Virus record (IMG/VR): IMGVR_UViG_3300031993_000024
Location: 64,001 to 128,000 of that record
DNA length: 64,000 nucleotides
Strand: one strand, 5' to 3'
Source: a virus
Taxonomy: Duplodnaviria > Heunggongvirae > Uroviricota > Caudoviricetes
A program made the position numbers and the translations under genes. Shown piece by piece: positions 8,336 through 41,387 of the stretch (the stretch's first letter is position 1; every line of letters starts with the position of its first letter). Under the pieces are notes generated by a model. The model searched no databases, was not told the DNA's origin, and worked only from the letters and a program-made list of their open reading frames with translations.

Positions 8336-8572
8336 ATGAAGAGATTCGTAAAAATATCCGTTATTATTTCTGTCCTGATACTGCCTATGCAGTCATATTG
8401 CCAGAAACTTACCGTTAGAAGTGATTACCTCATTCCGACTAACAAGGAAATCAAGGCTCATTGCTATGACTGTTCGCGGCAAGACGTCAAGGAGATGAGG
8501 GAAGAAATAATACTTGATATAAGAAAGCAGGAGTTTGATGACGCCGTGGAATTGAGGAAAACGAGAAATTAG
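8336..8572 (+). CDS. signal-peptide-bearing hypothetical protein; frame continues through TAG8570 and TGA8576 to TAA8641
   Basis: MKRFVKISVIISVLILP N-terminus; read-through frame translated by hand. Confidence 0.65.
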   Translation: MKRFVKISVIISVLILPMQSYCQKLTVRSDYLIPTNKEIKAHCYDCSRQDVKEMREEIILDIRKQEFDDAVELRKTRN

Positions 8573-8659
8573 GCGTGAAACATCGATTCTGGGACACTTT
8601 CACTAAGAATTAAGCAACAATACAAGAAAAAACAAAAATAACATCTTAAAACAAGCAAA

Positions 8660-9115
8660 ATGGAAGAAAATGTTAAAATAACGCAGAATCAGGATAGGTT
8701 ACCGGATGCAGGCATTCTGTCTATGGACCTCGCAAGTCGAGTTCCTTACGGCGTCAAGCTTGATTATTGCGACAGGAAATCAGGCGTGCATTATGAATGT
8801 ACGCTAATATCAGCCGGCTACCGGATACAAATCAAGGAAAGTCCGTTCTATTGCAATATAGACGACGTGAAGCCGTATTTGCGCTCGATGTCGAAAATAA
8901 CGAAAGACGAAAAGGCAAGCCTCAGAGCTACTTTCGGCATTAACGACAAATATGAATTCGAGAGATGGACGTATGGCGAGGGTATGACGAGCGTCAGCTT
9001 GAAAGATGTCGTCAAATTTTTCGACTGGCTGAACAGTCATCACATCGATTACCGGAATCTTATAAGAAAGGGTCTTGCTATCGAGGCCCCAGAAAATATG
9101 TATGACCTAAAATAG
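8660..9115 (+). CDS. hypothetical protein, paralog family A (DLxxRLPYGV...KPYLRxMSxMT...DWLN.HH.DYR.LI.KGLA.EAPE.MY)
   Basis: three conserved blocks shared with 10 other ORFs in the window. Confidence 0.85.
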   Translation: MEENVKITQNQDRLPDAGILSMDLASRVPYGVKLDYCDRKSGVHYECTLISAGYRIQIKESPFYCNIDDVKPYLRSMSKITKDEKASLRATFGINDKYEFERWTYGEGMTSVSLKDVVKFFDWLNSHHIDYRNLIRKGLAIEAPENMYDLK

Positions 9116-9123
9116 TTTCAATT

Positions 9124-9489
9124 ATGGAAATGGAAAGTATTGTCTATAGGACAAAATGTTATGAGCCGAAATCCGGCAGGTGGTATCAGAAATCGGTTTG
9201 TCTCGCCCATCTATACGGAGGAACCAGCTATGAATGGACAGATACCCCCGACCACAGACTGATGAAAGAGAAAGTTTGCATACGTGAGTTTCTGAATCCA
9301 GACAATATGGATATGTCATGGTACGAAGAAGATGACATCGACAAAGAATATAACAGCAATGACATTAAATATCAGATAAACTTTTCTGACAAGCTTGACG
9401 GCTTCCATCTTGAACGCCTTTTGTACAAAGGCAACGTGATTTATGCCGCTGCTACTGTCTGTACAAAGAAAATCCAAGTTAATTCTTAA
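9124..9489 (+). CDS. hypothetical protein
   Basis: ORF track. Confidence 0.7.
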   Translation: MEMESIVYRTKCYEPKSGRWYQKSVCLAHLYGGTSYEWTDTPDHRLMKEKVCIREFLNPDNMDMSWYEEDDIDKEYNSNDIKYQINFSDKLDGFHLERLLYKGNVIYAAATVCTKKIQVNS

Positions 9490-9500
9490 TTTCCGCGGTT

Positions 9501-9923
9501 ATGGATGATAAAAAATTTTTAGTGACAAGAACAGTAAACGTAAGCGTCAGCTTCCGTGTCACCAATGCCGTAGATGAATTTGTCTATGTCCATAAGGATG
9601 ATTTCCGCGGAGCAGTTAGAATGGATACCATGACGAAGATACACCTTACGTCCGGAGCACGAGACTCGAGAGACCTATATGTCAAGGAATCCGTCGAAGA
9701 GGTAAACGCTCTCGTTGACGAGGCAAAGCAGGTGTGGTTTAGAGAAACCAGCAAGGTAAAAAATTACGACTGTAAGAAGTCTAAGCTTATTGAGAAAGCG
9801 TGCGAATGGCTTGAAGAGAATGCCTATTCCTATAATTACATAAAGGTCGGTCTTGCAGGGCAAGGCGATACCTATGATATTGAAAGTATGCTTGAAGACT
9901 TCAAGAAAGCTATGGAAAAATAA
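9501..9923 (+). CDS. hypothetical protein
   Basis: ORF track. Confidence 0.7.
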   Translation: MDDKKFLVTRTVNVSVSFRVTNAVDEFVYVHKDDFRGAVRMDTMTKIHLTSGARDSRDLYVKESVEEVNALVDEAKQVWFRETSKVKNYDCKKSKLIEKACEWLEENAYSYNYIKVGLAGQGDTYDIESMLEDFKKAMEK

Positions 9924-9926
9924 CTT

Positions 9927-10214
9927 ATGATTACAGATAAGGAAAAAATAGAAGAGATAGTACAGATGTCTAACGCGTACCAGGTGTACGACGTGGTTGA
10001 TTTCGACGCCTTACGTGAAGCTCTAAGGGAAGACTTGCTCGAAATGGCGCAATGGAAAGATGAATGTCATAAGGTGGAAATGGAGAAGTGTGCGAAGGCG
10101 AAAGAGCAACAGATTTTCTCAATACTGCACCAGTTTGGATATGACTCCGCTCTTGTGGCAGTTCAGCATTATATTTCTACTGTAAATGAAGAGAGTCAGT
10201 TACATAAACAATAA
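9927..10214 (+). CDS. hypothetical protein, family E
   Basis: LLEMAQWKDE. Confidence 0.75.
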   Translation: MITDKEKIEEIVQMSNAYQVYDVVDFDALREALREDLLEMAQWKDECHKVEMEKCAKAKEQQIFSILHQFGYDSALVAVQHYISTVNEESQLHKQ

Positions 10215-10218
10215 GGAA

Positions 10219-10413
10219 ATGAAACGACAATATCGGAGAAATATAGTTAGGAGCTGTATCAATTCTGAACTTTCGAAACGAATAGCTTCAGAATATGCCG
10301 GTAAAGACATAGGCGAGCTTGATGTTGAAGTCGCATGCAGTGAAATCGCTAAACTGAAAGACGAAAAGTTTGACGAAGAAAGAAAATTTATGTTTGACGA
10401 GCTTCTCAAATGA
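10219..10413 (+). CDS. hypothetical protein, family E
   Basis: CSEIAKLKDEKF. Confidence 0.7.
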   Translation: MKRQYRRNIVRSCINSELSKRIASEYAGKDIGELDVEVACSEIAKLKDEKFDEERKFMFDELLK

Positions 10414-10544
10414 CTTGAAAAGAATTCATTGAACTATGTAGGCGTGATTGCGTCAGGACCTTGTTCGATAACGTTATCAGTCAAGGAGCTTGTCAACGAT
10501 TTCAAAAAAACTTAAATGATAAAAGTTATGGAAAAGAACAATGA
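10410..10544 (+). pseudogene. stop-interrupted small ORF MT(TGA)KEFIELCRRD...
   Basis: ATG overlaps the previous stop (ATGA coupling); TGA at codon 3. Confidence 0.4.
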
Positions 10545-11358
10545 AAATTTAACCTTCGAAAAAATGCAGGAGCTTTCGAAATGGAAAGACATGTATGACG
10601 AATTACGGCAGTACGTCTCTATTGAGCGTTTTGTCAAGCAAGCGAAAGCAAACGGGTATGATGACTCGAATGCCGAGAAGCTGTACAGTATTTTCTCTGC
10701 TGGATATTTCAAGAATCTGAGACTTATCGAAAGCGAACTTAACGGTAAGTTTGCGAAATACTTCCCAGAAGCTCTGAATATAGCGAAGGTTGCGTATGAC
10801 AACATACATAACTCAGTCACTCTGCATAGAAGAAGTTACGAAGAGCCTGCTGACATCAGAAGGTACTATTTCGAAAAGAAGGTCGAAGGGCAAGAAGGCG
10901 AAATGGAGGAGGTTGATGTGAACCTTTCAGAATCATCTGATATTCTCGCCCTTGCAGACATCCTGAGAAACCGTACTGACATCAAGTATGTAGGCCATTC
11001 TAAATTCTGTGAAGAAATCGAAACCGACAGCAGGGACAGAAAGAAGATAAAGATATTCGAGGGTGACATTATTTTTGTGCACCACGACTTGCACGACCAC
11101 ATGTTTTCATTGTATAAGGTAAAGGAAAAAGCAGGAGTCTATATCTGCGAGCGGGAAGGATGTTACGTCAAGCTGCGCTATATGCAGGATTCCGGGTATG
11201 TCGATGAAGATGGCAATCTGAACAAATCTGACAAGAGATGCAACCATTACGGCATTACAGGCATAGCTGACGCCCAGCATTTTGATGTCATCGGAAATAT
11301 CTACAAGGATATTTCAGTTCTTATGGACAATGAAATTCAGGAAGAGTCTGAGGATTAG
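10516..11358 (+). CDS. protein with C-terminal YopX-like domain
   Basis: DRKKIKIFEGDII and FDVIGNIYKD match YopX end motifs. Confidence 0.6.
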   Translation: MIKVMEKNNENLTFEKMQELSKWKDMYDELRQYVSIERFVKQAKANGYDDSNAEKLYSIFSAGYFKNLRLIESELNGKFAKYFPEALNIAKVAYDNIHNSVTLHRRSYEEPADIRRYYFEKKVEGQEGEMEEVDVNLSESSDILALADILRNRTDIKYVGHSKFCEEIETDSRDRKKIKIFEGDIIFVHHDLHDHMFSLYKVKEKAGVYICEREGCYVKLRYMQDSGYVDEDGNLNKSDKRCNHYGITGIADAQHFDVIGNIYKDISVLMDNEIQEESED

Positions 11359-11434
11359 TTATGAACTTATAATATATTGGTTATCAGTATAATAAAAATA
11401 ATTTATAGAATCTTCAAACTACTTTTGTTAAAAT

Positions 11435-11447
11435 GTTGTTTTTTATA
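11435..11447 (+). promoter_or_regulatory. GTTGTTTTTTATA motif
   Basis: identical 13-mer upstream of ORF 11474. Confidence 0.7.
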
Positions 11448-11473
11448 AGAAACAAAATAGCAAGGAGGTAAAA

Positions 11474-11944
11474 ATGCAAGTAAAACAGGTTAAGAAAGAA
11501 GTAATGTCGGAAGTCTTTGTTTCTATTGACGGAAAGGAATTTGTCGACAAGTATGATTGCGAGATGCACGAAGCTCAGTATGTCATAGACAGCTGCAAGG
11601 ATATGTTTGAAATCAAGCGAGTATTGTCTTATGATGGTAACAAGCGCCGTATGATGTTCACATATAATGAAATTGCCGCTAAGGAACATCCAGACTTATT
11701 CCGGAAGATGTTACTGCTTTTTATCAATACAGTTATAGATGAAGATTACAAGATTGCAAACATCGTAAAGGTTTCTAATATGTACATCATTTCTCATTTT
11801 CTTGATTCATATAAGTTCAAGCATCAAAAGAAATATGTCATTGAGCGAGAGCGGATGTTTGGTAGCAGCGAGCCGGATTCAATTTCATTGAATGTCATTG
11901 ATGTGGACAACTACCTTGAAGATATTCAAAAGCGAGTGGAATGA
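11474..11944 (+). CDS. hypothetical protein, paralog of 25402-25911; TGA11942 aligns to Trp of the paralog (frame continues to 12013)
   Basis: DGKEFVDKYDCEMHE vs DGKVFERVDDCICHE; C-terminal alignment. Confidence 0.75.
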   Translation: MQVKQVKKEVMSEVFVSIDGKEFVDKYDCEMHEAQYVIDSCKDMFEIKRVLSYDGNKRRMMFTYNEIAAKEHPDLFRKMLLLFINTVIDEDYKIANIVKVSNMYIISHFLDSYKFKHQKKYVIERERMFGSSEPDSISLNVIDVDNYLEDIQKRVE

Positions 11945-12016
11945 CTTAATTCGATATTCGGTTGCAGATATGTAATTTCTGACGATATGCCGAAAAAAGT
12001 AAAATGTAAGTAGCCT

Positions 12017-12217
12017 ATGGGAAAGTTTAATGATATACAAGTATCAGTTCTTGTAAAGACTGAAATCATAGACGGTGTCGAATGGTTTAAGGCGCCGACA
12101 GCAGTCATTGGAGTTTACAGGTCATTAAGAGACGCTCTCCGTGAAAAGGAAAAGCTTGAAGCCGGAAATAAAGACGAGAAAGTGATGTTTGACGTCATCC
12201 ATAAAGTTCTTTTGTAA
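12017..12217 (+). CDS. hypothetical protein
   Basis: ORF track. Confidence 0.65.
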   Translation: MGKFNDIQVSVLVKTEIIDGVEWFKAPTAVIGVYRSLRDALREKEKLEAGNKDEKVMFDVIHKVLL

Positions 12218-12238
12218 TTCTGTTTAAATAAACCAAGT

Positions 12239-12868
12239 ATGAAAAGTAAAAAGGAAATAATTCGTATACTCCACAATGAAGAAGTGCTATTCGCGCAAGA
12301 AATATGCGTAAATGAAGACAAGCGTGCTTTGTCTGATTTCGCGGATAATCCTCTTTTCGTTCACTTCGATGAATATCTGTCGATTCCCAAACAATACGTC
12401 ATCGTGCCGTATATCCATGAGAACTGTCTTCAAGGTTATGAAGTCACGACCTTAAAAGGCGGACATGGACTTGATGACCCATATTTAGGCAAGATATTCA
12501 CAATAGAAGGCCTGATTGATGAATTCTATAAGGAACCTTTGGATACCGCAGCCTGCCAGAAAAAGTCTGTCTTCGACAAGCTTGACGAAATTTCTGAAGA
12601 ATATGACAAGCTAATGAAGAGATTTGATAATCTCGTAGAGACTGAGCTGACTGATGTCTTGAAGGCATGGTTTAAAGAATACCGTTATGATGGCGAAAAG
12701 TTTGAACGTATTGAAAATGTTTATACAAAGCCTTTAAAGAACTGTGCGATACAGGAACCTTTTGTTCATTTCTATTATACCAATAGTAATAACGAAAAAA
12801 CTGAGGGATACTTGTCATTGAATACTTTGAAAGGATTCGAAATGACTTATGAAATAAAATGTGATTAA
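12239..12868 (+). CDS. hypothetical protein
   Basis: ORF track. Confidence 0.75.
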   Translation: MKSKKEIIRILHNEEVLFAQEICVNEDKRALSDFADNPLFVHFDEYLSIPKQYVIVPYIHENCLQGYEVTTLKGGHGLDDPYLGKIFTIEGLIDEFYKEPLDTAACQKKSVFDKLDEISEEYDKLMKRFDNLVETELTDVLKAWFKEYRYDGEKFERIENVYTKPLKNCAIQEPFVHFYYTNSNNEKTEGYLSLNTLKGFEMTYEIKCD

Positions 12869-12889
12869 CGTTTAATAAGTTGGAAAATT

Positions 12890-13204
12890 ATGGATGCTAC
12901 AATAGAAGAAGCAGTAATGGTTCTGCGAACTATTAGAATAGATAAGGAAAAAATTATCGAGAATGAGAAAAAGGTCATTACCGAAGTGTTTGGCAAAGCG
13001 GTAAGAAAATGGTTTGACAAGAATAAAGACATAAACAGAGACGCGCTTTGCCAGGTGGAAGAAGTAAACCTTAACCCTGACGCGCATTCGCCGATGCGGT
13101 TGCCTTATGTCAAATTCAGTTACCTTTGCAATGGAGAAAGCGTTAGACGTGAATGTATCCCCATAAAGGTTCTCCAGAACTATGAAGATGAAGAAACTAT
13201 ATAA
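12890..13204 (+). CDS. hypothetical protein
   Basis: ORF track. Confidence 0.7.
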   Translation: MDATIEEAVMVLRTIRIDKEKIIENEKKVITEVFGKAVRKWFDKNKDINRDALCQVEEVNLNPDAHSPMRLPYVKFSYLCNGESVRRECIPIKVLQNYEDEETI

Positions 13205-13215
13205 AATTAGATATT

Positions 13216-13602
13216 ATGATAGAAGGATTGACAAAAGAAAAGATAGACGAATTCAAGCGTCTTGAAGATGAGTGTAGGACACTTATTCTTGAGAGAGGAG
13301 CAGAAATTATCGAGAAGGCTGAAGAAAGAGGCGTAGAGCTTAACATATCGAAATGTGATGACGTCTCGTTGTATGATGATGATTTCGTAATAGCTGAATA
13401 CTACAGCTCAAGAGGTGAATCCTGGTATGATTATTCAGAAGAAATCCCTATAGACGCGTTTTATTCTGATGAAGCCCTTGAAAAATATTTTGACAGTGTA
13501 CTGCAGGAAATTGACGACAAAGACGAGCAATTACAGCAGGATATAGAAAAGTACGAGCGTTCAGAATACGAACGCCTTAAAGCGAAATACGAGGGAAAAT
13601 AA
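13216..13602 (+). CDS. acidic hypothetical protein
   Basis: ORF track. Confidence 0.75.
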   Translation: MIEGLTKEKIDEFKRLEDECRTLILERGAEIIEKAEERGVELNISKCDDVSLYDDDFVIAEYYSSRGESWYDYSEEIPIDAFYSDEALEKYFDSVLQEIDDKDEQLQQDIEKYERSEYERLKAKYEGK

Positions 13603-13603
13603 T

Positions 13604-14023
13604 ATGGAATCAACTTTTTCTACGAAGCTTGGAGACCTTTTCGGCAGCGAGTATTCCGAACATATCAAGGCAGGCGAGGAATATTGGTATAACTTCGGTG
13701 GATTACGAATAACCGACGGCACTGTCATATATTGGTGCAAGATAAAGGTGACGTATATCCGCTCAGGCGTAATGTTCTATATTTTTGACGGCTATCCGGA
13801 GGCAGGAGAAAGACATGCCGACCTAAATTCCATGATGACTGAGCTTATGGAAATTGCGATACTTGACCCTGTAAAGGATTTAGGAATTCCTGAAGAATCT
13901 TCATATAGGTTTGACGATACGCATACAAAGATAGTCAACTGGAATAATAACGGGGAAGGGAGTCAGAATCCTATTGACAGCGTAATCAATTCAGCTATAG
14001 AAGTTATTAAGAATAAAAAATAA
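13604..14023 (+). CDS. hypothetical protein
   Basis: ORF track. Confidence 0.7.
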   Translation: MESTFSTKLGDLFGSEYSEHIKAGEEYWYNFGGLRITDGTVIYWCKIKVTYIRSGVMFYIFDGYPEAGERHADLNSMMTELMEIAILDPVKDLGIPEESSYRFDDTHTKIVNWNNNGEGSQNPIDSVINSAIEVIKNKK

Positions 14024-14029
14024 GAAATT

Positions 14030-14557
14030 ATGTGGTGCGATAAGAAAAAATCAGGAGAGAAATCTAAAGAAAAACAAGGAGAGGAACAAGAAGAAAAATT
14101 TTATGACGTGAAAGTTCCGAAAGGATACGTCATAGATGAAGAGAAATCTTCTTTTTCAAGAATTGTGTTTAGAAAAGACGTAAGCTGGGCAGAGCGTGCG
14201 AAAACAGTACGTGAAGTCACCGGATATTATATTGATGAATCTGCAATGATTATCAAACAGAATAGTCCGCTACTGTTTACAGAGGACACGTATAACGTAT
14301 TCGCGACGGAGAAGCAGGCTTTGTGCTCGAAGTCTATGTCTCAGATTTCGCAGATACTTCTGCATGACAAAAGGTTTGGCGGCGTCATAAGTCCTGAGGA
14401 ATGGGACAAGGCTAACGCAATAATCGTGAGGGGCAGTAACGGACCTGAGATAAGTCCAGCATCCATATACCAGCTTCTTATATTCAAGAATAAGAAGTAT
14501 GCTACGTTGTTCCTTAAAGAATATCCAGAATTAGTTAAACAATATTTAATGATTTAA
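14030..14557 (+). CDS. hypothetical protein (VKVPKGYVIDEEKSSF motif)
   Basis: ORF track. Confidence 0.75.
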   Translation: MWCDKKKSGEKSKEKQGEEQEEKFYDVKVPKGYVIDEEKSSFSRIVFRKDVSWAERAKTVREVTGYYIDESAMIIKQNSPLLFTEDTYNVFATEKQALCSKSMSQISQILLHDKRFGGVISPEEWDKANAIIVRGSNGPEISPASIYQLLIFKNKKYATLFLKEYPELVKQYLMI

Positions 14558-14561
14558 AAAT

Positions 14562-15068
14562 ATGGGAAATTACAATTTGACTTTTGAAGACGCCCAATCA
14601 TACCAGATTGGCAGAGATTACACACTTGCTGCGAATGACGGCGACATCCACACGGATTACAAGAAGCCGACTCAGACCGAAGGAAACATATTGAAATGGG
14701 CAGACGACACCCACCTTAAATGGATGTCTAAGAAAATCCATGAAAAAAATGTCGAGAAGGGTTTCTATGATAAAAGCCGTGAACTCGGCACAATGCTGAT
14801 GCTTATTGTTTCAGAACTCTCAGAAGCTCTTGAGGCAGATAGGAACGGCAGACATTGCGACATAGAGGAGGTTGCGGCAAGCCACGACATTTCAGACCCT
14901 GTAGTTTTCAAGGGATTCATAAAGGATAGCTTCGAAGATGAGTTAGCCGACGTTTTTATAAGGATGTTTGACCTCTGCGGATACCTCGGTCTCGACATCC
15001 AGAAATATATAGACGCTAAGCTCAAGTATAACGAGCAGAGAGAGCATAAGCACGGCAAATCATATTAA
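14562..15068 (+). CDS. mazG: MazG-like nucleotide pyrophosphohydrolase
   Basis: LIVSELSEALEADR and EDELADVFIR (ExxE...ExxD). Confidence 0.8.
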   Translation: MGNYNLTFEDAQSYQIGRDYTLAANDGDIHTDYKKPTQTEGNILKWADDTHLKWMSKKIHEKNVEKGFYDKSRELGTMLMLIVSELSEALEADRNGRHCDIEEVAASHDISDPVVFKGFIKDSFEDELADVFIRMFDLCGYLGLDIQKYIDAKLKYNEQREHKHGKSY

Positions 15069-15071
15069 AAC

Positions 15072-15084
15072 GTTGTTTTTTATA
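15072..15084 (+). promoter_or_regulatory. GTTGTTTTTTATA motif
   Basis: identical 13-mer upstream of ORF 15107. Confidence 0.7.
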
Positions 15085-15106
15085 TTAAACAAAAACATTT
15101 ACAGAC

Positions 15107-15547
15107 ATGAACAATAAAATTATTTTGGCTTTGCAGGATAAAGAAACTATCTTGGAAGTCGCGAAAGACCCAGAAGTTCAAATTAAAATCAAGGACGCCA
15201 TCATTGACGGTGTAGCGAAAAGAGTGGCCAAGGGTGCTTTCGATAATGACTGCAATGTCAGCAAGCAGCTTCGAGAGGATGTTCTCAAGGCAATGTTTGA
15301 AAAGACATTCCTACGGTCATCGTTTACGAAAGACTACAAAGAGATTTTTGATGCAGCTGTGTCAGAATTGATAGAAAAGTCAGTTCAAGAAAATATCCAA
15401 GGCATTCAAGACAAAATCAACAAGCATATCAATATGTTCCAAACACATGCCGAAGAATTCCTTGCAAACTATGATTTCGAACACCGTGTTAACGAACAGA
15501 TTGAGAAGAAGCTTGGTGAAGTAGTGAAGAAGCTTGTAGAAAAATAA
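15107..15547 (+). CDS. hypothetical helical protein
   Basis: ORF track. Confidence 0.75.
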   Translation: MNNKIILALQDKETILEVAKDPEVQIKIKDAIIDGVAKRVAKGAFDNDCNVSKQLREDVLKAMFEKTFLRSSFTKDYKEIFDAAVSELIEKSVQENIQGIQDKINKHINMFQTHAEEFLANYDFEHRVNEQIEKKLGEVVKKLVEK

Positions 15548-15564
15548 TAAAGGCATAAAACAAA

Positions 15565-16053
15565 ATGACAAAATCAAAAGCATTAAAAATTATTCAGGCT
15601 CTTATAGAGAAATATGGCGGCGACCATGTTCTCTATAAGATTTGCGACGAATATAAGTTTCAGCTGAGAACGACTGAAGACGACATACATAATACAGGGT
15701 TAAGAAGATTCCGTGAAGACTATATCAGGGCATATTACACATTGTCATCCCTGTTTACCGATATTCAGGACTGCGAGAGTCTTTCAGGCAAGGCTGCAAT
15801 AAGCACAACGTCTATGAATTCGATAGGACAGTATGTACGTCAGTGCGACAGCAATATCGAATGGTTTAAATGCCAGCCTATTGTACTTGGCAATTTCGAA
15901 GATTCGAAGAAAGAGTACGACGAGTTTGTCAGCGATGAAACTAATGCGGAACTTATTAAAAAGCACAACGAGAAAATGCGTAGGCTGTTTGGGAATATGA
16001 TGATAGCAGGCAGCGCGCTTATGCAAGGGATTTCTCCAAAGCTTTACGTATAA
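15565..16053 (+). CDS. hypothetical protein
   Basis: ORF track. Confidence 0.75.
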   Translation: MTKSKALKIIQALIEKYGGDHVLYKICDEYKFQLRTTEDDIHNTGLRRFREDYIRAYYTLSSLFTDIQDCESLSGKAAISTTSMNSIGQYVRQCDSNIEWFKCQPIVLGNFEDSKKEYDEFVSDETNAELIKKHNEKMRRLFGNMMIAGSALMQGISPKLYV

Positions 16054-16070
16054 CTTAAAAATAAATTGCT

Positions 16071-16469
16071 ATGACTGATATTCAAAATTTACCAAAAGAT
16101 ATGTTTCATGACGCATGGGTCATAAGACATAGTGGAAGAATCAACAAAGCTGTAATTTATTCAGCAAACTCTGAAGAGGTAAGAGTTTATACTTATGATA
16201 ACGAGTGTAAAAAGGTATATCATACATTCAAATACAAAGACAGTAAATGGATTAGTTTTGATGATATGCTGGTATTTGACTTGTCATCTCAAGAAACAAA
16301 GGATATTATCGCGGAACGCCTTAATAAATACAGTACAAACATACATTCTGATTACAGGCTGGCTTTTGAAAACTACTTGAAACGTATGGAGCTTTTCCGT
16401 GATATTCTTGACAGTAATGCCGCCATTGAAAAAGAAGCTATCTTGAAGCAGCATAATCTAAATAATTGA
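16071..16469 (+). CDS. hypothetical protein
   Basis: ORF track. Confidence 0.7.
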   Translation: MTDIQNLPKDMFHDAWVIRHSGRINKAVIYSANSEEVRVYTYDNECKKVYHTFKYKDSKWISFDDMLVFDLSSQETKDIIAERLNKYSTNIHSDYRLAFENYLKRMELFRDILDSNAAIEKEAILKQHNLNN

Positions 16470-17014
16470 TACTGAAAAATCTTATGGGAAAAGTATTTTT
16501 TACATCAGACCTGCATTTCGGTCATGAGCTTCTTACGCAAGCTTTGAGGAAAATGTCAGCAAAGGAGTCAGACGAGCTTATTATCGAGAACTGGAACAGC
16601 ATCGTTACTAAACACGACAAGGTATATGTCCTCGGTGACCTGACTATGGAGAAACACTCGAATCTTTGTTTGCTGAAACAGCTTAGAGGCGATATAACCG
16701 TTGTAGGCGGGAATCATGACATACAGAAATGCTGCAAGGCGATTACTGGTATGAACATACCTGTTATGGGAGTGCTGAAGTACAAAGGTTTTCTATGTAC
16801 GCATATACCTATTCATCCTCTGTTTCTGAAAGAATGCCGTGGAAACATTCACGGACATATCCACGTACCTGACAGCGAACATGACTACGATATGACGCTG
16901 CCGGCCGGAAGCGATAAATACTATAACGTCAACTGTGAATTCCACGATTACAAACCTGTTGAATTCCAGGAGATAGAAAGTTATTTCAAGCAGCTTTCAG
17001 AAATGAATATCTAA
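16466..17014 (+). CDS. calcineurin-like metallophosphoesterase
   Basis: SDLHFGH, LGD, GNHD, TH, NIHGHIH motifs. Confidence 0.88.
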   Translation: MILKNLMGKVFFTSDLHFGHELLTQALRKMSAKESDELIIENWNSIVTKHDKVYVLGDLTMEKHSNLCLLKQLRGDITVVGGNHDIQKCCKAITGMNIPVMGVLKYKGFLCTHIPIHPLFLKECRGNIHGHIHVPDSEHDYDMTLPAGSDKYYNVNCEFHDYKPVEFQEIESYFKQLSEMNI

Positions 17015-17032
17015 TTATAAAAATAGAAAGAA

Positions 17033-17455
17033 ATGTATATAGCAGTAGATTTTGACGGAACATGCGTAAAGCATCAGTTTCCAGAAGTAGGAGAAGACAT
17101 AGGAGCAGTGCCTGTATTGAAAGAACTTGTAGAGGCAGGACACAAGTTGATATTGTGTACAATGAGGTCTCATCCGTCTGAAAAGACAAAGCACGCCTCT
17201 GAGAAAGGATATATAGCAACTGAAAAGGATACATTACAGGATGCTGTCGACTGGTTCAATGAGAACGGTATAGAATTATACGGCGTTAACGAGAATCCTT
17301 CACAGAAGGCCTGGACGGAAAGCAAGAAGATATATGCGAACATGTATATAGACGACTGCGCTCTCGGCGTGCCGCTTATCGCTGACGGAAGAGGTAATGT
17401 GTTCGTTGACTGGGAAGAGGTAAGAAAGTTGTTGGTAATAAGAAAGGTTCTTTAG
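17033..17455 (+). CDS. HAD-superfamily hydrolase (BT0820-like)
   Basis: IAVDFDGT motif I, CTMR, YIDD motif IV. Confidence 0.8.
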   Translation: MYIAVDFDGTCVKHQFPEVGEDIGAVPVLKELVEAGHKLILCTMRSHPSEKTKHASEKGYIATEKDTLQDAVDWFNENGIELYGVNENPSQKAWTESKKIYANMYIDDCALGVPLIADGRGNVFVDWEEVRKLLVIRKVL

Positions 17456-17456
17456 G

Positions 17457-17729
17457 ATGGAAAATACTGAACTCAATTATGACATCTGCTGCGTTAACTG
17501 CAAGCACTGCATCATATCTGAGACTAACCTGGCAGGAATAGGGACATGCTGTTGCAAGAAGGCTCCATTATATTCAAGGATTTATGGCCAAAGAAGCTTT
17601 CAATACTGCTACAAGGTTCTTGAGAAAAGTGTTATAAACGAATATTGCAAGGACTTCGAGCCTGACTTCACGACAAGGATAAAGATGTGGTTCAAACAAA
17701 AATGGCGCAAACATGGAAAGAAAAATTAG
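17457..17729 (+). CDS. Cys-rich hypothetical protein
   Basis: CxxCxxC pattern. Confidence 0.65.
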   Translation: MENTELNYDICCVNCKHCIISETNLAGIGTCCCKKAPLYSRIYGQRSFQYCYKVLEKSVINEYCKDFEPDFTTRIKMWFKQKWRKHGKKN

Positions 17730-17964
17730 AGAAGACATTGATGACGAACTTATTCAAAGAATTGTCGACGACATTACAGACAACGACACAGAGCTTGTAT
17801 TCGTGGAAGATGAGCTTAAGGCTGCTGTGAAGAAAATGGCCGTTACGAAGAACGAAGAATTCATAAAGTTTCTTACGAGCCTGAAACTAATGACTACTAC
17901 CCAGCATTTGTTTGAAATGATAGATAAGAAAATAGAAGAACTCAAAGCAAATAACAACCACTGA
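17713..17964 (+). CDS. hypothetical protein, distant family E
   Basis: VKKMAVTKNEEF. Confidence 0.65.
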   Translation: MERKIREDIDDELIQRIVDDITDNDTELVFVEDELKAAVKKMAVTKNEEFIKFLTSLKLMTTTQHLFEMIDKKIEELKANNNH

Positions 17965-17965
17965 G

Positions 17966-18682: not shown

Positions 18683-18696
18683 ATCTATAGTCAAAC

Positions 18697-18709
18697 GTTG
18701 TTTTTTATA
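18697..18709 (+). promoter_or_regulatory. GTTGTTTTTTATA motif upstream of the tRNA locus
   Basis: identical 13-mer. Confidence 0.7.
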
Positions 18710-18794
18710 TATGTTATAACGTTAAATCAAAATTTGAAAAGTTATGAAGAAATTTAAATTTTAATCCGTCTGGCGGAGACAAGCGTCATTAGAT

Positions 18795-18834
18795 GGCGTG
18801 ATAGTTCAAATTAGAACAGAACACCGTCCTTTCT
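18795..18834 (+). pseudogene. 5' half of a tRNA-Glu(TTC)-like gene, truncated at the anticodon
   Basis: GGCGTGA TA GTTC...GAAC A CCGTC CT TTC; no T-arm follows. Confidence 0.4.
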
Positions 18835-18906
18835 GGCCCTGTAGTTCAATGGATAGAATAGAAGTTTCCTAAACTTTAGATTCGGGTTCGATTCCCGGCG
18901 AGGCTA
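18835..18906 (+). tRNA. trnR: tRNA-Arg(CCT)
   Basis: D-arm GTTC/GAAT, anticodon arm GAAGT-TTCCTAA-ACTTT, T-loop GGTTCGATTCC; weak acceptor stem, no encoded CCA. Confidence 0.88.
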
Positions 18907-18917
18907 CAAAATCAAAA

Positions 18918-29762: not shown

Positions 29763-29784
29763 GTTATCATATAAAGTATAAATT

Positions 29785-34790: not shown

Positions 34791-34810
34791 AAATACTAAA
34801 AAACAGAATT

Positions 34811-35052
34811 ATGATAAAAGAAAATTGGAAAAAATCATATTGTACTTAAAGAACGTTTTTGAATTATGAAAGACTGGTTGAAAGATATTGACATGATTGT
34901 GACAAAGCACAATAACGAATCTTACGACGTAGCGATAGACATAATCCTTTTAGAAAAATAGAGGATATAACACAAGAAAGACACAAATTTGTGAAAACCG
35001 ATGGATATAATTTATATATCAAAGTAGAAAAGATTACAGATTTTCAATAACA
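34811..35052 (+). pseudogene. decayed ORF (two A-run frameshifts plus in-frame TGA 34860)
   Basis: protein-like text split over three frames. Confidence 0.35.
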
Positions 35053-35101
35053 AAATACTATGTTCAATTCTACAGAAGAATCTAAATTTGATTAAAAAAT
35101 T

Positions 35102-35392
35102 ATGAAAGCATTTGATAAATATTATTTAAAAACCGCATTTCGAAAAAATATTGCAGTTAGCAGCAGATTGCAGAGTATATTGCAATGGTTTGGCATTGCC
35201 ATACATAACCCATTGAGAGACGAGTGTTGCGTAGATTTCGCTTGCTGTTCACCAACAGGCAAGGAACGCTGCTGGTTATCAATCTCGGTAAACAATCTGC
35301 CATATCGCCGGGTAGTATGGTACGAACCTACGGCATCAAAGGGGACACCATGCAGGACATTTAAAAAGTGTACAAAATTAGTAAGACAATAA
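35102..35392 (+). CDS. hypothetical protein
   Basis: ORF track. Confidence 0.6.
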   Translation: MKAFDKYYLKTAFRKNIAVSSRLQSILQWFGIAIHNPLRDECCVDFACCSPTGKERCWLSISVNNLPYRRVVWYEPTASKGTPCRTFKKCTKLVRQ

Positions 35393-35396
35393 CAAT

Positions 35397-38300
35397 ATGG
35401 AAAATTACAACAAACTATTAGAGAAAGCGAGAGAGGCATACTCAAAGAGTGTGACAGGTGCAGAAAAAAGAAGGTTGGAATCCATCTTTCCAGAACTTGT
35501 AGAGAGCTTGGATGAGAAGATAAGGAAAGAAATACTTGATTATTTCAAAGACCTTTATGAACACGGTTATCCGACCAAAGAATGGGTTGCTTGGATTGAA
35601 AAGCAAGACAAGAAGGAAATCGATAAGGTTGAACTTTGTTTCGACCATAGTCCTGAATTGAAAGGACAAGACGGAAAAATGCTGGAATCAATCATTGAAT
35701 GTATAGACGGGACTGGTTTACTTGATTCCGACCAGATAGATTGGCTCAAATCTTTTAAAGACAAATGCTCTATAAAAGATGATAAGGCTTTGCTTGAAAA
35801 ACGAGTTGAGCAAGCCGACTACAATCCATATAAGGCAACGATTGAGTCAATTGCTGCCATGGTTGAAAGGTATGCAGATAATGGCGATTTGAAGGATTTC
35901 TATGACAATATCAAGGTCAAATGCAAGGATGCCATGGAATATGGTAAGACTTTGTCTGAAAAACGAGGTGAGCAGAAACTTGTTTGGAGTGAAGAAGATA
36001 ATGGGTTTGTGGATTTACTCTTAGCTATATTCACTAATATGCACCCAAACGAACTTTTCACGACTAATAACATAACTGTATTTAATGGAGATAATGTCTC
36101 TTCAGGCAGAATTGCCACTTGGCTTAAATCTTTCAAGGACAAATGCAAAGATGTCATAGAATACAATAAAGCTTTACTTGAAAACAAAAATAAAGATGGT
36201 AAAGTAATATTTCCTAAGTTTACATTCGATGATGTTCTTGCCTTGGAATGTTGTATGAAAATGACTGAAAAAGAAGAAGAACTCCATGAGCAACTGCAAA
36301 GCCTCCATGATAGAGTTCATGATGTTTATCAGCCTGATAAGAAAGGCAATTCAGCACAAGAAGAAATCAAAGAACGAGATTTATTCAAATTTCGTGATTC
36401 AGTATCTAAAGCAACCAAAGAAGGACGAGATTTCTTTAAATTTCATAAGGGCGATTGGATTGTTCATAATGATAAGAAAGAAGTATTTTTTATAAAGAAT
36501 ATTAGTTGCGGATATTTGTCATTAGAGGGCGTTGATGGTATCACTCATTATCCTTGCTTACCATTGGATAGTGAATTTCATCATTGGACTATCGAAGATG
36601 TGAAGGATGGTGATGTATTGGCTAATAAGTATGGTGTCATATTTATAAACGATGGTAATAGAGGGGGAAAAGCAACATTGGATTCTTATTGTTATCTTTC
36701 AGTTCAATATGAGTTTTGTATAAATGAACACAAAACAGATTGTTGGCTATATAAGGATGACATAAAACCAGCAACTAAAGAGCAGCGAGACTTCTTTTTC
36801 GCTAAAATGAAAAAGGCAGGCTACGAATGGGATTCTGAAAATAAGGAATTGAGAAAACAATGTAATCAGGAATCTATTGATAAGGTTGAGGCAAAGTTCA
36901 AAGTTGGTGATTGGGTTGTCTGCGATGGGCTTAAAACTGCACTTATAGTGAACATTGATGATGATAAATATGAAGTTGAATTTATTGATGGTGACAAAGG
37001 GTTCCCACATATTGTCTATATAGACAGGTTGTTCCATCATTGGACCATAGAAGATGCAAAAGATGGTGATGTGGTTGTTGACAAATCTAATGGGACTATT
37101 GGTATATTTCAAAGCATAGGACACGACCCAGATGGTGGCAGTCATAATGACCCTTCCTACTGTTTCTTGCATTGTCGTTATGTTAACGGATTCTTTTATG
37201 CAGACTTTGAAAATGGAAATATGATTGATGCAGATGATTTAATACCAGCAATCAAAGAACAACGTGACATTTTATTTGCAAAGATGGCAGAAGCCGGTTA
37301 CGAATGGGACCCTAAAAATAAATCATTAGGAAAACAATGTAATAAGGAACTTAATAACCTTAAGTCAAAGTTTAAGGTTGGTGATTGGATTGTACATAAT
37401 GGTGTAGGCGTATACAAGATTGTCGAGGTTTGTGAGTCTTGGTATGAAGTAATCTCGTATAATAATGACGGAATTGTAATACAATATTCTATTGGTTTTG
37501 ATAAGGAAAATGACTGTCGGCTTTGGACTATTCAAGATGCAAAGAATGGCGATGTACTTGCAAATACCGCCAGGTGTATTCTTATCGCTAATGACAATAA
37601 ATCTTGTTTATGTTATTTAGATAAAAATGAAAAATTCCATGCACATAATAATAAGTGGCTTTTCTCAAATTTTAGTGATAATGTTCTAACACCAGCAACC
37701 AAGGAACAACGTGACCTACTATTCTCAAAAATGAAGGAGGCAGGCTACGAATGGGACGCTAAAAATAAGGAATTGAGAAAACGAAGTAATCCAGAATCTA
37801 ATAAAGTTGGACCAAAATTCAAAGTAGGGGACTGGGTTATAGGTGAAGGATTTAACCCTATACTTATAACGGACATCAAAAATAATAGGTATGAATTTGA
37901 ATTCATTGACGGCACCAAACGTTTTTCCGGCATTGATTGTATAGACAGCGACTTCAATCTTTGGACTATCGAAGATGCAAAGGATGGTGATGTACTTGCA
38001 GGTCACGAATGTTATGTACTATTCAAAAACATTGCCGGATTGAATATTAGATGTCACTGTACATATCATTATATGGGGTACAATCCAAGTTTTCATGTAG
38101 AAACTTTACAAAATAAGACAGCTTTCCGTCCTGCTACCAACGAACAACGTGACTTACTACTTCAAAAGATTGAAGACGCCGGTTACGAATGGGATGCTAA
38201 AAATAAGGAATTGAGAAAACAATGTAATCAGGAATCTATCGTTAGGGCTTACCCAAAGTTCAAGGTAGGTGACTGGATTGTGCATAATGATGTAAGCGTA

Positions 38301-39173
38301 TACAAAATTATAGAGGTTTGCGAGTCTTGGTATGAGGTAATCTCGTATAATGGCGAAACAGGAAAACAGTATTCCATTGGTTTTGATAATGAAAATAACT
38401 GTCGTCTTTGGACTATCGAAGATGCAAAAGAAGGAGATGTACTTGCATGGGATGGTAGTATGTGTCTTGCTTTATTCAAAAGTATTTACAATAAAGAGGA
38501 TTTTTGCAGTTACGGACTTGTAGGGCACTGTACTCAATCTTTCGAAAATAGAGAAGGTTTCCATGACATAGAAGGAGCTCATCCTGCCACTAAAGAACAA
38601 CGTGACCTATTCTTTCAAAAGATGAAAGAAGCAGGCTACGAATGGAATGCTAAAAATAAAGAATTAAGAAAACAATGTAATCAGGAACCTGTTGACAAGG
38701 TTGGTCCAAAGTTTCAGAAAGGGCAGTGGATTTTTCATGAAGGATTTCATCCCATGTTTATAGTAAACATTGACGGTGATAAGTATGAAATTGAATTTAC
38801 TGACAATGGTACCAAAGGAACTCAGCCTATTGATTTTATAGATAAAATCTGTCATCTCTGGACTATCGAAGATGCAAAAGAAGGTGATGTACTTGCAATC
38901 GGAAATACGTATTTCCTATTTAAAGGAGCAATATTTAAAAGTTTTCCTACATCACCGACTGTTTATATCAGCCATTGTTTTGCCCATGCAACTGGAGCAT
39001 TTAGGCTTACCAATGGAATGGATTGCGGTAAGTTTCATGCTATTGAAGATGGCATTGAGGTCTGCCCTGCCACCAAAGAAGAGCGTGACCTGCTATTTCA
39101 TAAGATGAAAGAAGCCGGCTACGAATGGGATGCCAAAAAGAAAGAGATGGTAAAGGAAATAAACTATAAGTAA
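35397..39173 (+). CDS. 1258-aa mosaic repeat protein: family D N-terminus plus six tandem family C modules
   Basis: modules start at 36438, 36894, 37368, 37815, 38256, 38709. Confidence 0.9.
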   Translation: MENYNKLLEKAREAYSKSVTGAEKRRLESIFPELVESLDEKIRKEILDYFKDLYEHGYPTKEWVAWIEKQDKKEIDKVELCFDHSPELKGQDGKMLESIIECIDGTGLLDSDQIDWLKSFKDKCSIKDDKALLEKRVEQADYNPYKATIESIAAMVERYADNGDLKDFYDNIKVKCKDAMEYGKTLSEKRGEQKLVWSEEDNGFVDLLLAIFTNMHPNELFTTNNITVFNGDNVSSGRIATWLKSFKDKCKDVIEYNKALLENKNKDGKVIFPKFTFDDVLALECCMKMTEKEEELHEQLQSLHDRVHDVYQPDKKGNSAQEEIKERDLFKFRDSVSKATKEGRDFFKFHKGDWIVHNDKKEVFFIKNISCGYLSLEGVDGITHYPCLPLDSEFHHWTIEDVKDGDVLANKYGVIFINDGNRGGKATLDSYCYLSVQYEFCINEHKTDCWLYKDDIKPATKEQRDFFFAKMKKAGYEWDSENKELRKQCNQESIDKVEAKFKVGDWVVCDGLKTALIVNIDDDKYEVEFIDGDKGFPHIVYIDRLFHHWTIEDAKDGDVVVDKSNGTIGIFQSIGHDPDGGSHNDPSYCFLHCRYVNGFFYADFENGNMIDADDLIPAIKEQRDILFAKMAEAGYEWDPKNKSLGKQCNKELNNLKSKFKVGDWIVHNGVGVYKIVEVCESWYEVISYNNDGIVIQYSIGFDKENDCRLWTIQDAKNGDVLANTARCILIANDNKSCLCYLDKNEKFHAHNNKWLFSNFSDNVLTPATKEQRDLLFSKMKEAGYEWDAKNKELRKRSNPESNKVGPKFKVGDWVIGEGFNPILITDIKNNRYEFEFIDGTKRFSGIDCIDSDFNLWTIEDAKDGDVLAGHECYVLFKNIAGLNIRCHCTYHYMGYNPSFHVETLQNKTAFRPATNEQRDLLLQKIEDAGYEWDAKNKELRKQCNQESIVRAYPKFKVGDWIVHNDVSVYKIIEVCESWYEVISYNGETGKQYSIGFDNENNCRLWTIEDAKEGDVLAWDGSMCLALFKSIYNKEDFCSYGLVGHCTQSFENREGFHDIEGAHPATKEQRDLFFQKMKEAGYEWNAKNKELRKQCNQEPVDKVGPKFQKGQWIFHEGFHPMFIVNIDGDKYEIEFTDNGTKGTQPIDFIDKICHLWTIEDAKEGDVLAIGNTYFLFKGAIFKSFPTSPTVYISHCFAHATGAFRLTNGMDCGKFHAIEDGIEVCPATKEERDLLFHKMKEAGYEWDAKKKEMVKEINYK

Positions 39174-39197
39174 TGACACAAACAAAAAGTAAATGTT

Positions 39198-39410
39198 ATG
39201 ATTTCACAAGAAGAAAAAAGAAAAAATGATTTTGTCAGCGGAAAATTCCTTACGTGCCAAAAATCCTTCAATGAGTTTAAAGAAGGAAACACTTATTGGC
39301 TTGAATACATAGGCGCTGACACATACGTTGGAAGGAGTGACAATATTCTCAATCGAAAATTTCACATAACCCCGTCCCAATTGTTCAGCTTATTTGTAAA
39401 TAACAATTAA
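39198..39410 (+). CDS. hypothetical protein
   Basis: ORF track. Confidence 0.6.
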   Translation: MISQEEKRKNDFVSGKFLTCQKSFNEFKEGNTYWLEYIGADTYVGRSDNILNRKFHITPSQLFSLFVNNN

Positions 39411-39420
39411 ATTTATAACT

Positions 39421-39606
39421 ATGGCATTTGAATTGTTTGGAAATATTTATGAAGAGGTTGAGGATAACCGTTCTGAATCAGACTGCTTATCTTGTGCATT
39501 GCTCAAAATTTGTGAGAAGACAAAGCCACTTTTACCGTGTAAAAGAAAAGACGGCAACATAAACAGACATTTCATCATTGTAGAAAAATTAAATGAGGAG
39601 AAATAA
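39421..39606 (+). CDS. small Cys-containing hypothetical protein
   Basis: CLSC...C...C. Confidence 0.6.
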   Translation: MAFELFGNIYEEVEDNRSESDCLSCALLKICEKTKPLLPCKRKDGNINRHFIIVEKLNEEK

Positions 39607-39608
39607 TT

Positions 39609-39857
39609 ATGATACCTAAACTATTAAAACGTCATTACTTAAAACCAAACTCATCTCAAAGAGATTATGTAAGTATCTGGCAAACAGATGAATGTTATAT
39701 TATACCATTCTTTTCAGTCACCAATATCATGAACATCATGCGCAAAGGCAACGCTTACGTGAGACTTGGGTGGCTATGCTGGTATATAGAATATTTTAAT
39801 GATAGTGTCCTTTCAGCTTGGTGTTATGAAGAAGATTCCCAAGAAAAAGAAAATTAA
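39609..39857 (+). CDS. hypothetical protein
   Basis: ORF track. Confidence 0.6.
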   Translation: MIPKLLKRHYLKPNSSQRDYVSIWQTDECYIIPFFSVTNIMNIMRKGNAYVRLGWLCWYIEYFNDSVLSAWCYEEDSQEKEN

Positions 39858-39868
39858 ATACAAAGGAT

Positions 39869-40342
39869 ATGGAAACAATATTCAAAGAAGGAGATTGGAT
39901 TGTAAGAATTGACGGTTCTGACATTGTACCAAAAGTACGTACTATGTTAGTTCGAAAGATTGATACGGATTGTGTGCACTGTGAATATGAAACGTCAACT
40001 AAATTTGTCTATGGGTACTTAATACCAAACGAATTACTCAATAATTTTAGATTATGGAATATCAACGATGCAAAAAGAGGTGATTTTCTATGGGATAGTG
40101 AAAACTATACGGCAGTTGTATTTGATGAATTATTTGAAGATTCATTCAATGTATTTTGCTTGGTTATATATGGTGATTTAAGTAGGGCTAACAAGCTTTA
40201 TGTAAAGCATTTTAAACTCAATCCAGAAAAAGTTCTGTCATATACCCCGATACCAGCAAGATATAATATTGTGGATTATGTTTTAGGAGACTACGGATAT
40301 AAGTGGGATAAGGATAAAAATGAATTGATAAAAATAAAATAA
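39869..40342 (+). CDS. divergent single-module family C protein
   Basis: FKEGDWIV / RLWNINDAKRGD / GYKWDKDKNEL. Confidence 0.8.
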   Translation: METIFKEGDWIVRIDGSDIVPKVRTMLVRKIDTDCVHCEYETSTKFVYGYLIPNELLNNFRLWNINDAKRGDFLWDSENYTAVVFDELFEDSFNVFCLVIYGDLSRANKLYVKHFKLNPEKVLSYTPIPARYNIVDYVLGDYGYKWDKDKNELIKIK

Positions 40343-40351
40343 GCAAAGGAT

Positions 40352-40648
40352 ATGGCAAAGAGAAGTTCAATATGGATTGGTAAAGAAGCATATCAGTACT
40401 TACTAACGTTATCGATAACTCAAAGATGCGGCAAAAGGCCAGATGCTGAAACTCTTGAAAAGAAGTGGCGTTACAAACTGTCAGTCGCCGGCGAGAACGA
40501 TATGGTGCAAATCATGGATGGTGACTTAGGTGGTGCGGATTCTGTCGGTATATGGCACAATTGGACTTTGCAGGATATAAAGTACTTCTTGAAAAGAAAA
40601 GGATTGAAATGGCAAAGAGGTAAAATGGTTGAATATACTACGATATAA
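40352..40648 (+). CDS. hypothetical protein
   Basis: ORF track. Confidence 0.7.
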   Translation: MAKRSSIWIGKEAYQYLLTLSITQRCGKRPDAETLEKKWRYKLSVAGENDMVQIMDGDLGGADSVGIWHNWTLQDIKYFLKRKGLKWQRGKMVEYTTI

Positions 40649-40683
40649 ACAGTTATTTAATATGTAATTAAAATAGGAGATAT

Positions 40684-41061
40684 ATGGAAGATATGCAAAA
40701 AATGACAGGAATGTGTGAATATGGATTCTATGTGAATACTGATGTGACAAAATTTATCGGTGCGATATTGAGCGCACCTGGAAATTTGATAGGTATTGGA
40801 GAATTAAAGGAACCAATAACTATTGACCATAACTTATGTCTTAGAATTTCAAGATTGCTTGAAATAACTGCGGATATATCCTATTCACCAATAAATGATA
40901 AATGCTTTTATGTAAACATAGGACTTTTAAGTTTCATTAACCGTGTATTAAATGTTGGATTTGGAACTGAAATTCAAATTGACAATGCGAGGACAGAGAA
41001 GGATTATTTGCTTGACGTGTCAAAACATCCGCTTATATGTTCGGTAATAACAAAACATTAA
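40684..41061 (+). CDS. hypothetical protein
   Basis: ORF track. Confidence 0.65.
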   Translation: MEDMQKMTGMCEYGFYVNTDVTKFIGAILSAPGNLIGIGELKEPITIDHNLCLRISRLLEITADISYSPINDKCFYVNIGLLSFINRVLNVGFGTEIQIDNARTEKDYLLDVSKHPLICSVITKH

Positions 41062-41162
41062 CAACATCAAAGAATGTATTTAAGTTGATAAACTAAATAA
41101 ATATAATAAATTTTATTAGAACTTTATAGTTTAGTTTTATATAAAATTTTTTAGTTAGTATA

Positions 41163-41387
41163 TTGAAATGATATAAGGTTGCTACTAAAACATTTCCTTA
41201 GTAGTGTAAAATCATCAAGGATTCGGAATGACCAATACATGAATTCTCAAGACTGTTCGAAAGAATAGAATCATAGAGACTTAAAAAAGTAAAAGTAGTC
41301 ACAGATGAGCAAATATTGCTCTTACGTGATAGAGGTGATGTTGTTTCGCAATTGATGTTAGAAATAACTCATAAACATTCTTTATAA
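41163..41387 (+). pseudogene. 74-codon frame with 2 TGA + 3 TAG and no TAA
   Basis: hand translation; preceded by the motif variant GTTTAGTTTTATATAAAA; no ATG start. Confidence 0.4.

Follow-up and report, generated by a model that had tools for sequence, protein, structure and literature searches.

Five small genes of a jumbo phage of about 239 kb are interrupted by in-frame TAG or TGA codons. Four of these genes lie in the window, a stretch of 64,000 nucleotides that makes up bases 64001–128000 of the 130,999-bp virus record IMGVR_UViG_3300031993_000024 (a record without a terminal repeat), and the fifth lies outside it in the same record. The stops are very probably recent nonsense mutations, representing the ordinary decay of dispensable accessory ORFans in a genome that uses the standard code. 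At every real site in the window there is a sense codon in relatives at about 90% DNA identity (TGG, TGG, GGA, CAG, and CAA), and at two of the loci other lesions accompany the stops.

Interrupted frames at the reported loci

The stops had been noted previously from the sequence alone, at six loci where gene-like frames were said to be broken only by TAG or TGA. These loci, L1 to L6, were assessed using a codon-usage score trained on 98 long open reading frames (ORFs), which over 40 codons gives 14 ± 5 in the coding frame and about –5 in the others, and by an unbiased tblastn in which every ORF of the relatives was searched against the window. The stretches past the stops at L2, L3, L4, and L5 score 11–18 in the frame of the upstream ORF, and there is no coding signal at L1 (8579–8641) or L6 (41154–41366). 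Real in-frame stops were found by tblastn at L2, L3, L4, and L5 only. Four of the six loci (10411, 11942, 26448, and 29842/29863) are thus supported by both the coding score and read-through orthologs, while 8570/8576 and 41163–41387 are not. The TGA at 10416 that had been listed is off-frame, the true L2 stop being the nearby TGA at 10411–10413. Two loci were said to hold both codon types, yet no real frame has TAG and TGA together. The features at the six loci are as follows.

L1, 8336–8572, + strand: intact gene of 78 amino acids (aa) with a signal-peptide-like N-terminus and the stop TAG 8570; conserved in relative contig L001
L2, 10186–10413, + strand: ORFan of 75 codons with premature TGA 10411–10413; identified from the L001 ortholog and the coding score
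L2 remnant, 10414–10515, + strand: 33 coding-like codons by the codon-usage score, then TAA 10513
L3, 11474–11944, + strand: ORFan of 156 codons with premature TGA 11942–11944; identified from orthologs P0006 and P0007 and four sequencing runs
L3 remnant, 11945–12013, + strand: 22 codons, then TAG 12011–12013, the natural stop of the full-length form; identified from the coding score and orthologs
Gene 3' of L3, 12017–12217, + strand: separate gene of 66 aa with its own ATG, called separately in relatives and not a read-through product
L4, 26364–26450, + strand: 28 codons, then premature TGA 26448–26450; identified from the codon in relatives
L4 remnant, 26451–26567, + strand: 38 coding-like codons to TAA, called as a 38-aa product with a TTG start (P0010)
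L5, 29785–29991, + strand: ORFan of 68 codons with TAG 29842–29844 and TAG 29863–29865, ending in TAA 29989; identified from relatives
Gene remnant 3' of L5, 29992–30034, + strand: tail of a 112-aa gene that is complete in relatives (L007:10212-10550)
L6, 41062–41642, no strand: intergenic gap of 26% GC with no coding signal and with TAA, TAG, and TGA in every + frame

At L1, the TAG and the next bases are identical in L001, after which a 1-nucleotide (nt) indel destroys any common frame, and TGA 8576 sits in the 3' untranslated spacer of the gene. Read-through at 8570/8576 is ruled out, as the gene ends naturally at the conserved TAG 8570 and the sequence downstream has no coding score. The longest TAA-free run at L6 is 80 codons, a length reached or exceeded in 29% of dinucleotide-Markov simulations (P=0.29). 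With no coding score and a TAA-free run within chance, an interrupted gene at 41163–41387 is also ruled out.

The L2 ORFan is best understood against L001, which has about 90% DNA identity to the window, is collinear with it across 256–18880, and holds an L3 ortholog as well. At the position of the L2 TGA, L001 has TGG (Trp), within a single 122-aa gene. This gene has two further differences in the window. A 250-nt segment (10102–10348) is absent in L001, and in its presence the gene becomes two overlapping ORFs of 95 and 75 aa, while a 1-nt deletion alters the C-terminal tail. No paralog of the 250-nt segment was found in the genome.

The L3 orthologs P0006 and P0007 (177–178 aa, 81–84% identical) carry Trp at the TGA and end within a few codons of TAG 12011. 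The truncation therefore costs 22 of 178 residues. TAG 12011 itself is ruled out as a read-through stop, being the natural end of the gene and followed by a gene with its own start codon. Logan contigs from four bovine or gut runs cover positions within 10300–29950, and all four have G at 11944, giving TGG. One of the four, the 19-kb contig X2, differs from the window at 46 positions in 8.6 kb (99.5% identical) and has almost no cover past 19.4 kb. As X2 still has TGG, the L3 stop is younger than about 0.5% divergence and hence very recent. The L3 protein has no match in the phage GenBank collection, an IMG/VR protein-pattern scan gave no relatives, and the exact DNA pattern with N at the stop site has 0 matches in viral contigs.

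The L4 site is GGA (Gly) in two proteins and in four relative contigs, the change in the window being a G>T transversion. There are 0 matches to the exact L4 pattern, with N at the stop site, in metagenome contigs. The L5 relative is a 68-aa protein, 93% identical, with Gln at both TAG sites and the codons CAG at 29842 and CAA at 29863. A change from CAA to TAG at 29863 takes two steps or passes through a CAG intermediate. The 112-aa gene found 3' of L5 in relatives has been deleted from the window, leaving its tail. The exact L5 pattern, with N at the stop sites, has 0 matches in viral contigs and in metagenome contigs. A T4 gene-60-style bypass at L5 is ruled out, since L5 lacks a matching landing codon and is collinear with its orthologs.

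A scan for coding-like frames in all of the gaps between gene calls gave one extra interrupted frame.

Fifth interrupted ORFan, G000 (the 131-kb record) 59288-59554, equivalent to window –4712 to –4446 and to L011:4288-4554: 88 codons, with TGA at 59315

The TGA is codon 10 and there is no start codon within the next 50 codons. Directly 5' of this ORFan are the gene for RtcB and one copy of the GTTGTTTTTTATA promoter motif. In its alignments with four distant homologs, which start at residue 1, the TGA is matched by an invariant Arg, within the motif M-E-x-x-x-x-W-Y-I-R-G (WYIRG). No relatives of the fifth gene came from the IMG/VR protein-pattern scan.

Ancestral codons and timing of the stops

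In homologs, the four TGA codons align with W, W, G, and R, and the TAG codons align with Q twice, in one gene only. No single reassignment fits TGA at W, W, G, and R positions, whether to Trp, to Gly (code 25), or to selenocysteine. All four TGA codons are accounted for by one-step mutation from TGG, TGG, GGA, and CGA/AGA, and the changes TGG>TGA (twice), GGA>TGA, and CAG>TAG are each single substitutions. Selenocysteine or pyrrolysine decoding is ruled out by the homolog residues W, W, G, R, Q, and Q. There are no selenocysteine or pyrrolysine insertion elements (SECIS, PYLIS) among the Rfam matches in the window, where no specific search for such RNA elements was made.

The original prediction stated that the stops read naturally as Gln and Trp. 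This is true of both L5 TAG codons and of two TGA codons, while the other TGA codons correspond to Gly and Arg in homologs. A fit to Gln and Trp is expected in any case, because few transitions yield a stop more often than CAG>TAG and TGG>TGA. A model that combines the codon usage of the genome with the transition bias seen here has a stop arising from 3.9% of random substitutions, with an expected spectrum of TAA 0.39, TAG 0.40, and TGA 0.21. The top modelled routes are CAG>TAG (0.13), CAA>TAA (0.12), and TGG>TGA and TGG>TAG (0.09 each). Applied to the roughly 18 changes per 8.6 kb that are derived in the window, the 3.9% rate predicts about 3 neutral nonsense hits per 35 kb of accessory DNA, which is of the same order as seen.

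Differences between strains also indicate the age of the changes. Where X2 and more distant strains agree against the window, a change was taken to be derived in the window; by this definition there are about 18 window-derived changes among the differences listed in 8.6 kb, or about 0.2% of sites. The window allele at 11944 is derived, all four runs having G. Downstream of the stops compared to upstream, the ratio of nonsynonymous to synonymous polymorphism (pN/pS) is 0.41 versus 0 for L5 and 0.25 versus 0.31 for L3, although these segments are short and the divergence mostly predates the lesions.

Ortholog comparison had been suggested as a check on the stops, and it returned sense codons at all real sites. 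A second suggested test was for other types of lesion. There are indels at L2 (the 250-nt indel and the 1-nt deletion) and a neighbouring gene deletion at L5. There is no TAA in 4 genes, a lack that is not significant under the nonsense spectrum (P=0.13).

All five affected genes are small, at 68–178 aa full length. None of the five has a Pfam match and one has a PHROG match, which is weak and of unknown function. No paralogs of the L2 to L5 genes were found in the genome. The genes are presumably dispensable, and the parts downstream of the stops are probably no longer produced in useful amounts. In the proposed course of events, point mutations, mostly one base from a sense codon, would arise in five small accessory genes of the phage, with each nonsense mutation cutting its gene short. 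The affected genes lie in a block of small + strand ORFans that turn over quickly, and the phage could presumably do without them, at least for a short time. Dispensability would let the mutations persist at the tip of the lineage, alongside indels and gene deletion, and the lesions would be seen before selection or deletion clears them.

Genetic code of the phage

The 131-kb record is a fragment of a larger genome. Its last 3,187 bp overlap the IMG/VR contig G002 (44.9 kb) with 100% identity, and G003 (88.9 kb) overlaps G002 across 41.7 kb with 99.998% identity. G002 and G003 were reached through an IMG/VR scan with a phage promoter motif, which returned three contigs. The composite of G000, G002, and G003 is 219.9 kb of the approximately 238.6-kb genome (about 92%). 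An ENA contig of 238,631 bp has the same genes as the window, and a further 10 kb located 5' of G000, available as a gene list only, consists of tightly packed protein genes. The runs carrying the window sequence are bovine gut metagenomes. Joining G000, G002, and G003, which give about 220 kb of the approximately 239-kb genome, establishes the set of transfer RNA (tRNA) and transfer-messenger RNA (tmRNA) genes of the phage.

With ORFs of at least 80 aa, the coding density of the 131-kb record is 88% under code 11. Reading TGA as sense changes this by +1.4 percentage points, TAG by –0.1, and both by +1.9, against +4.2 for a TAA control. In the 219.9-kb composite, the density is 0.890 under code 11, 0.902 with TGA as Trp, 0.895 with TAG as Gln, 0.910 with both, and 0.926 in the TAA control. 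The gains of 1.2, 0.4, and 2.0 percentage points for TGA, TAG, and both are all under the 3.6 of the control. Recoded contigs of at least 100 kb were flagged by Borges et al. (bioRxiv 10.1101/2021.08.26.457843) by a density gain of >5%, and the gains here are below that threshold.

The 298 called genes end in TAA (205), TGA (47), or TAG (46), so that TAG and TGA together account for 31%. Long and structural genes are open, without internal stops, and the 89 kb added by G002 and G003 contain zero interrupted coding frames. Global recoding is ruled out by the coding density and terminator usage, and the genome follows the standard code. The original prediction had itself argued against global recoding, from genes ending in TAG and TGA and from intact long genes, and both points are borne out.

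The only tRNA of the window, and of the 131-kb record, is a tRNA-Arg(CCT), which is not a suppressor. In the added 89 kb there are 11 tRNAs (Gln-CTG, His-GTG, Met-CAT x2, Ser-GCT, Asn-GTT, Leu-AAG, Ile-GAT, Glu-TTC, Ala-TGC, and one aberrant tRNA-like gene) and a genuine tmRNA (Rfam RF00023, 86 bits), for which the tag peptide given by ARAGORN ends ...APVAMRMAA. Phage-encoded tmRNA in a jumbo phage may merit its own look.

tRNA-Arg(CCT), 18835–18907, + strand: found by tRNA scan and Rfam
tRNA/tmRNA cluster, G003:C1:47298-50768 (L018, L032), likewise in G001: found by ARAGORN and Rfam
Aberrant tRNA-like gene, G003:C1:49353-49425 (L032:1113-1185), – strand: Rfam 33 bits, with an abnormal anticodon arm

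The loop of the aberrant gene, which is identical in G001 and G003, is either 6 nt, UUAAAA (ARAGORN), or 8 nt, AUUAAAAC (Rfam), depending on how the stem is drawn. Neither loop gives CUA or UCA. The gene could be a degenerate Leu or Phe tRNA or a frameshift-type decoder. Suppressor tRNAs and release factors had been proposed as a further check. No tRNA with a CTA or TCA anticodon was found by ARAGORN and Rfam across the approximately 220 of 238.6 kb in G000, G002, and G003, and there was no match to the RF-1 domain (PF00472) in these sequences, with positive controls; synthetases were not searched.

Weighing the explanations

Of the three readings put forward originally, nonsense decay in dispensable genes agrees with the sense codons in relatives, with the polymorphism between strains at one site, and with the companion indels. 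A variant of it, judged unlikely, is that the stops are true nonsense mutations that are passively leaky, near-cognate read-through yielding a few percent of full-length protein without any phage machinery, which may explain their tolerance. The L2 and L3 stops both read TGA CTT, and in E. coli termination is weakest at TGA followed by C. The L3 truncation removes few residues and the codon usage past the stops is still gene-like. However, gene-like codon usage would be kept by any very recent lesion, and L4 (TGA-T), the fifth case (TGA-G), and the double TAG of L5 are without the weak C context.

That the phage is at the start of a code change is very unlikely. Under this explanation suppression of TAG, TGA, or both has just been gained, through a suppressor tRNA in the unseen part of the genome or a host or aberrant tRNA, and stops are starting to accumulate in non-essential genes. 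All of the stops being on this strain's lineage, with zero in relatives, is consistent with this, as are the Gln positions of both TAG codons, the Trp positions of two TGA codons, and the presence of an aberrant tRNA-like gene and a tmRNA in the tRNA cluster. There is precedent in Borges et al., where code change occurred between phages of >90% average nucleotide identity and suppressor tRNAs were gained in relatives with the standard code. Against it, the approximately 220 of 239 kb searched contain neither a CTA or TCA tRNA nor an RF-1 domain, the odd tRNA loop (UUAAAA or AUUAAAAC) has no CUA or UCA anticodon, and homologs have Gly and Arg in place of two of the TGA codons. The genes hit are small accessory ORFans, not the structural and lysis genes where recoding accumulates, 31% of genes still end in TAG or TGA, and the same loci have indels and a deletion. 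If true, the strain would offer an uncommon view of a code change as it begins, and would be the first phage seen tolerating both stop types together. Conditional suppression of both stops, the first of the original readings, likewise fails on the orthologs (TGG/TGG/GGA/CAG/CAA), the indels and deletion at the loci, the lack of a suppressor tRNA or release factor in the sequence searched, the class of gene affected, the homolog residues, and terminator usage.

There is next to no probability that the phage took over the interrupted genes from a relative in which TAG is decoded as Gln or TGA as Trp. Recoded phages are present in the cattle gut (Borges et al.), which would provide donors. The loci are, however, collinear with relatives that are 90–99.5% identical, have sense codons at the exact sites, and are equally similar in the flanks, and TGA aligns with four ancestral contexts (W, W, G, R). 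The second of the original readings, acquisition from recoded donors, fails for the same reasons, the stops being within collinear DNA where close relatives, one of them 99.5% identical, have sense codons. It is scarcely more credible that the stops are artefacts of sequencing, assembly, or damage. Five of the changes across the five genes belong to classes typical of damage (G>A, C>T, or G>T), and TAG 29863 has an A>G difference from the relatives as well. Yet the ENA, JGI, and Logan assemblies (L002, L003, L004) repeat the TGA codons at 10411 and 11942, with at most 1 nt different from the window in 20 kb, and the sources are consensus contigs at metagenomic depth.

Several observations weigh against recent nonsense decay as the explanation. 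All five genes with nonsense mutations belong to this strain and not to its relatives, a mild excess (about P=0.06 if each is seen as a coin flip), and a reverse search found no real in-frame stops in about 40 kb of relatives. L5 has two TAG codons 21 nt apart, both at Gln positions, and the five replacements past its stops are all conservative. Both of the Trp-site TGA codons precede C, and some full-length protein may be made. About 7–8 kb of the approximately 239 kb are unseen and 10 kb more are represented by the gene list only. The identical assemblies L002, L003, and L004 may come from one sample; one run alone contains all of the sampled words, and the assemblies were not counted as independent populations.

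Other features of the genome

About 95% of window genes are on the + strand, small ORFans are in the majority, and GC is 32–44%. A block of approximately 15 kb (window ~34800–50340) is missing in the relative contig L007, where 34821 is joined to 50338, making it a large strain-variable insert. It contains a 1258-aa gene, the AT-rich gap at 41 kb, and an IscB element. The 1258-aa gene has no DNA match in the phage GenBank collection. An Rfam HEARO RNA (115 bits) is present at 46386–46636, upstream of the 411-aa ORF at 46702–47937, which fits the IscB-omegaRNA element described in the original prediction.

Single genes and mobile elements also vary between strains. A 420-bp stretch (24365–24786), comprising most of the 142-aa ORF at 24371–24799, is skipped exactly by contigs of two runs and by L006, L007, and L008, and is a single-gene presence/absence polymorphism. 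The relative L001 has insertions of the insertion sequence (IS) types IS607/IS605 at L001:4547-6357 and L001:11734-12930, and the same sites in the window are empty. These insertions carry a resolvase-type TnpA with TnpB, plus a second TnpB, with the second matching a copy at G000 42118-43766. At G000 43319-43985 there is an IS200-type TnpA remnant with an in-frame TAG and TAA, so that TAA lesions are also found in decaying genes of this genome.

Comparison with known systems

Recoded gut phages (crAss-like, Lak, Jade, Agate, and related phages), which read TAG as Gln (code 15) or TGA as Trp (code 4), have been described (bioRxiv 10.1101/2021.08.26.457843; Peters et al. 2022, PMC9523058). Like them, this phage is large, has low GC, prefers TAA, comes from the animal gut, and has TAG and TGA in frame at a few Gln and Trp positions. 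Unlike them, it has no density gain under code 4 or 15, and 92% of its genome holds neither a suppressor tRNA nor a release factor. The stops are outside late genes, TGA is also at Gly and Arg positions, and TAG and TGA are common terminators. A few in-frame TAG or TGA codons that read well as Gln or Trp should be seen as the ordinary output of transitions, rather than as evidence of recoding. A claim of recoding requires suppressor tRNAs, a density gain, and homolog columns that agree on one residue.

Programmed read-through, as in Qbeta A1 and other functional extensions (PMC5133446), resembles the present case in having a coding-like frame past a weak-context TGA-C. In those systems the stop and the extension are conserved in relatives, whereas here the orthologs have TGG, GGA, CAG, or CAA.

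The nonsense pseudogenes in the hyperplastic accessory regions of T4-like and jumbo phages are alike in their small ORFans, variable block, and single-base truncations. They are also alike in polymorphism between near-identical strains, with indels and gene deletions. Five genes in one strain, one with two TAG codons, is on the high side, but there is no essential difference between those pseudogenes and the interrupted genes of this phage.

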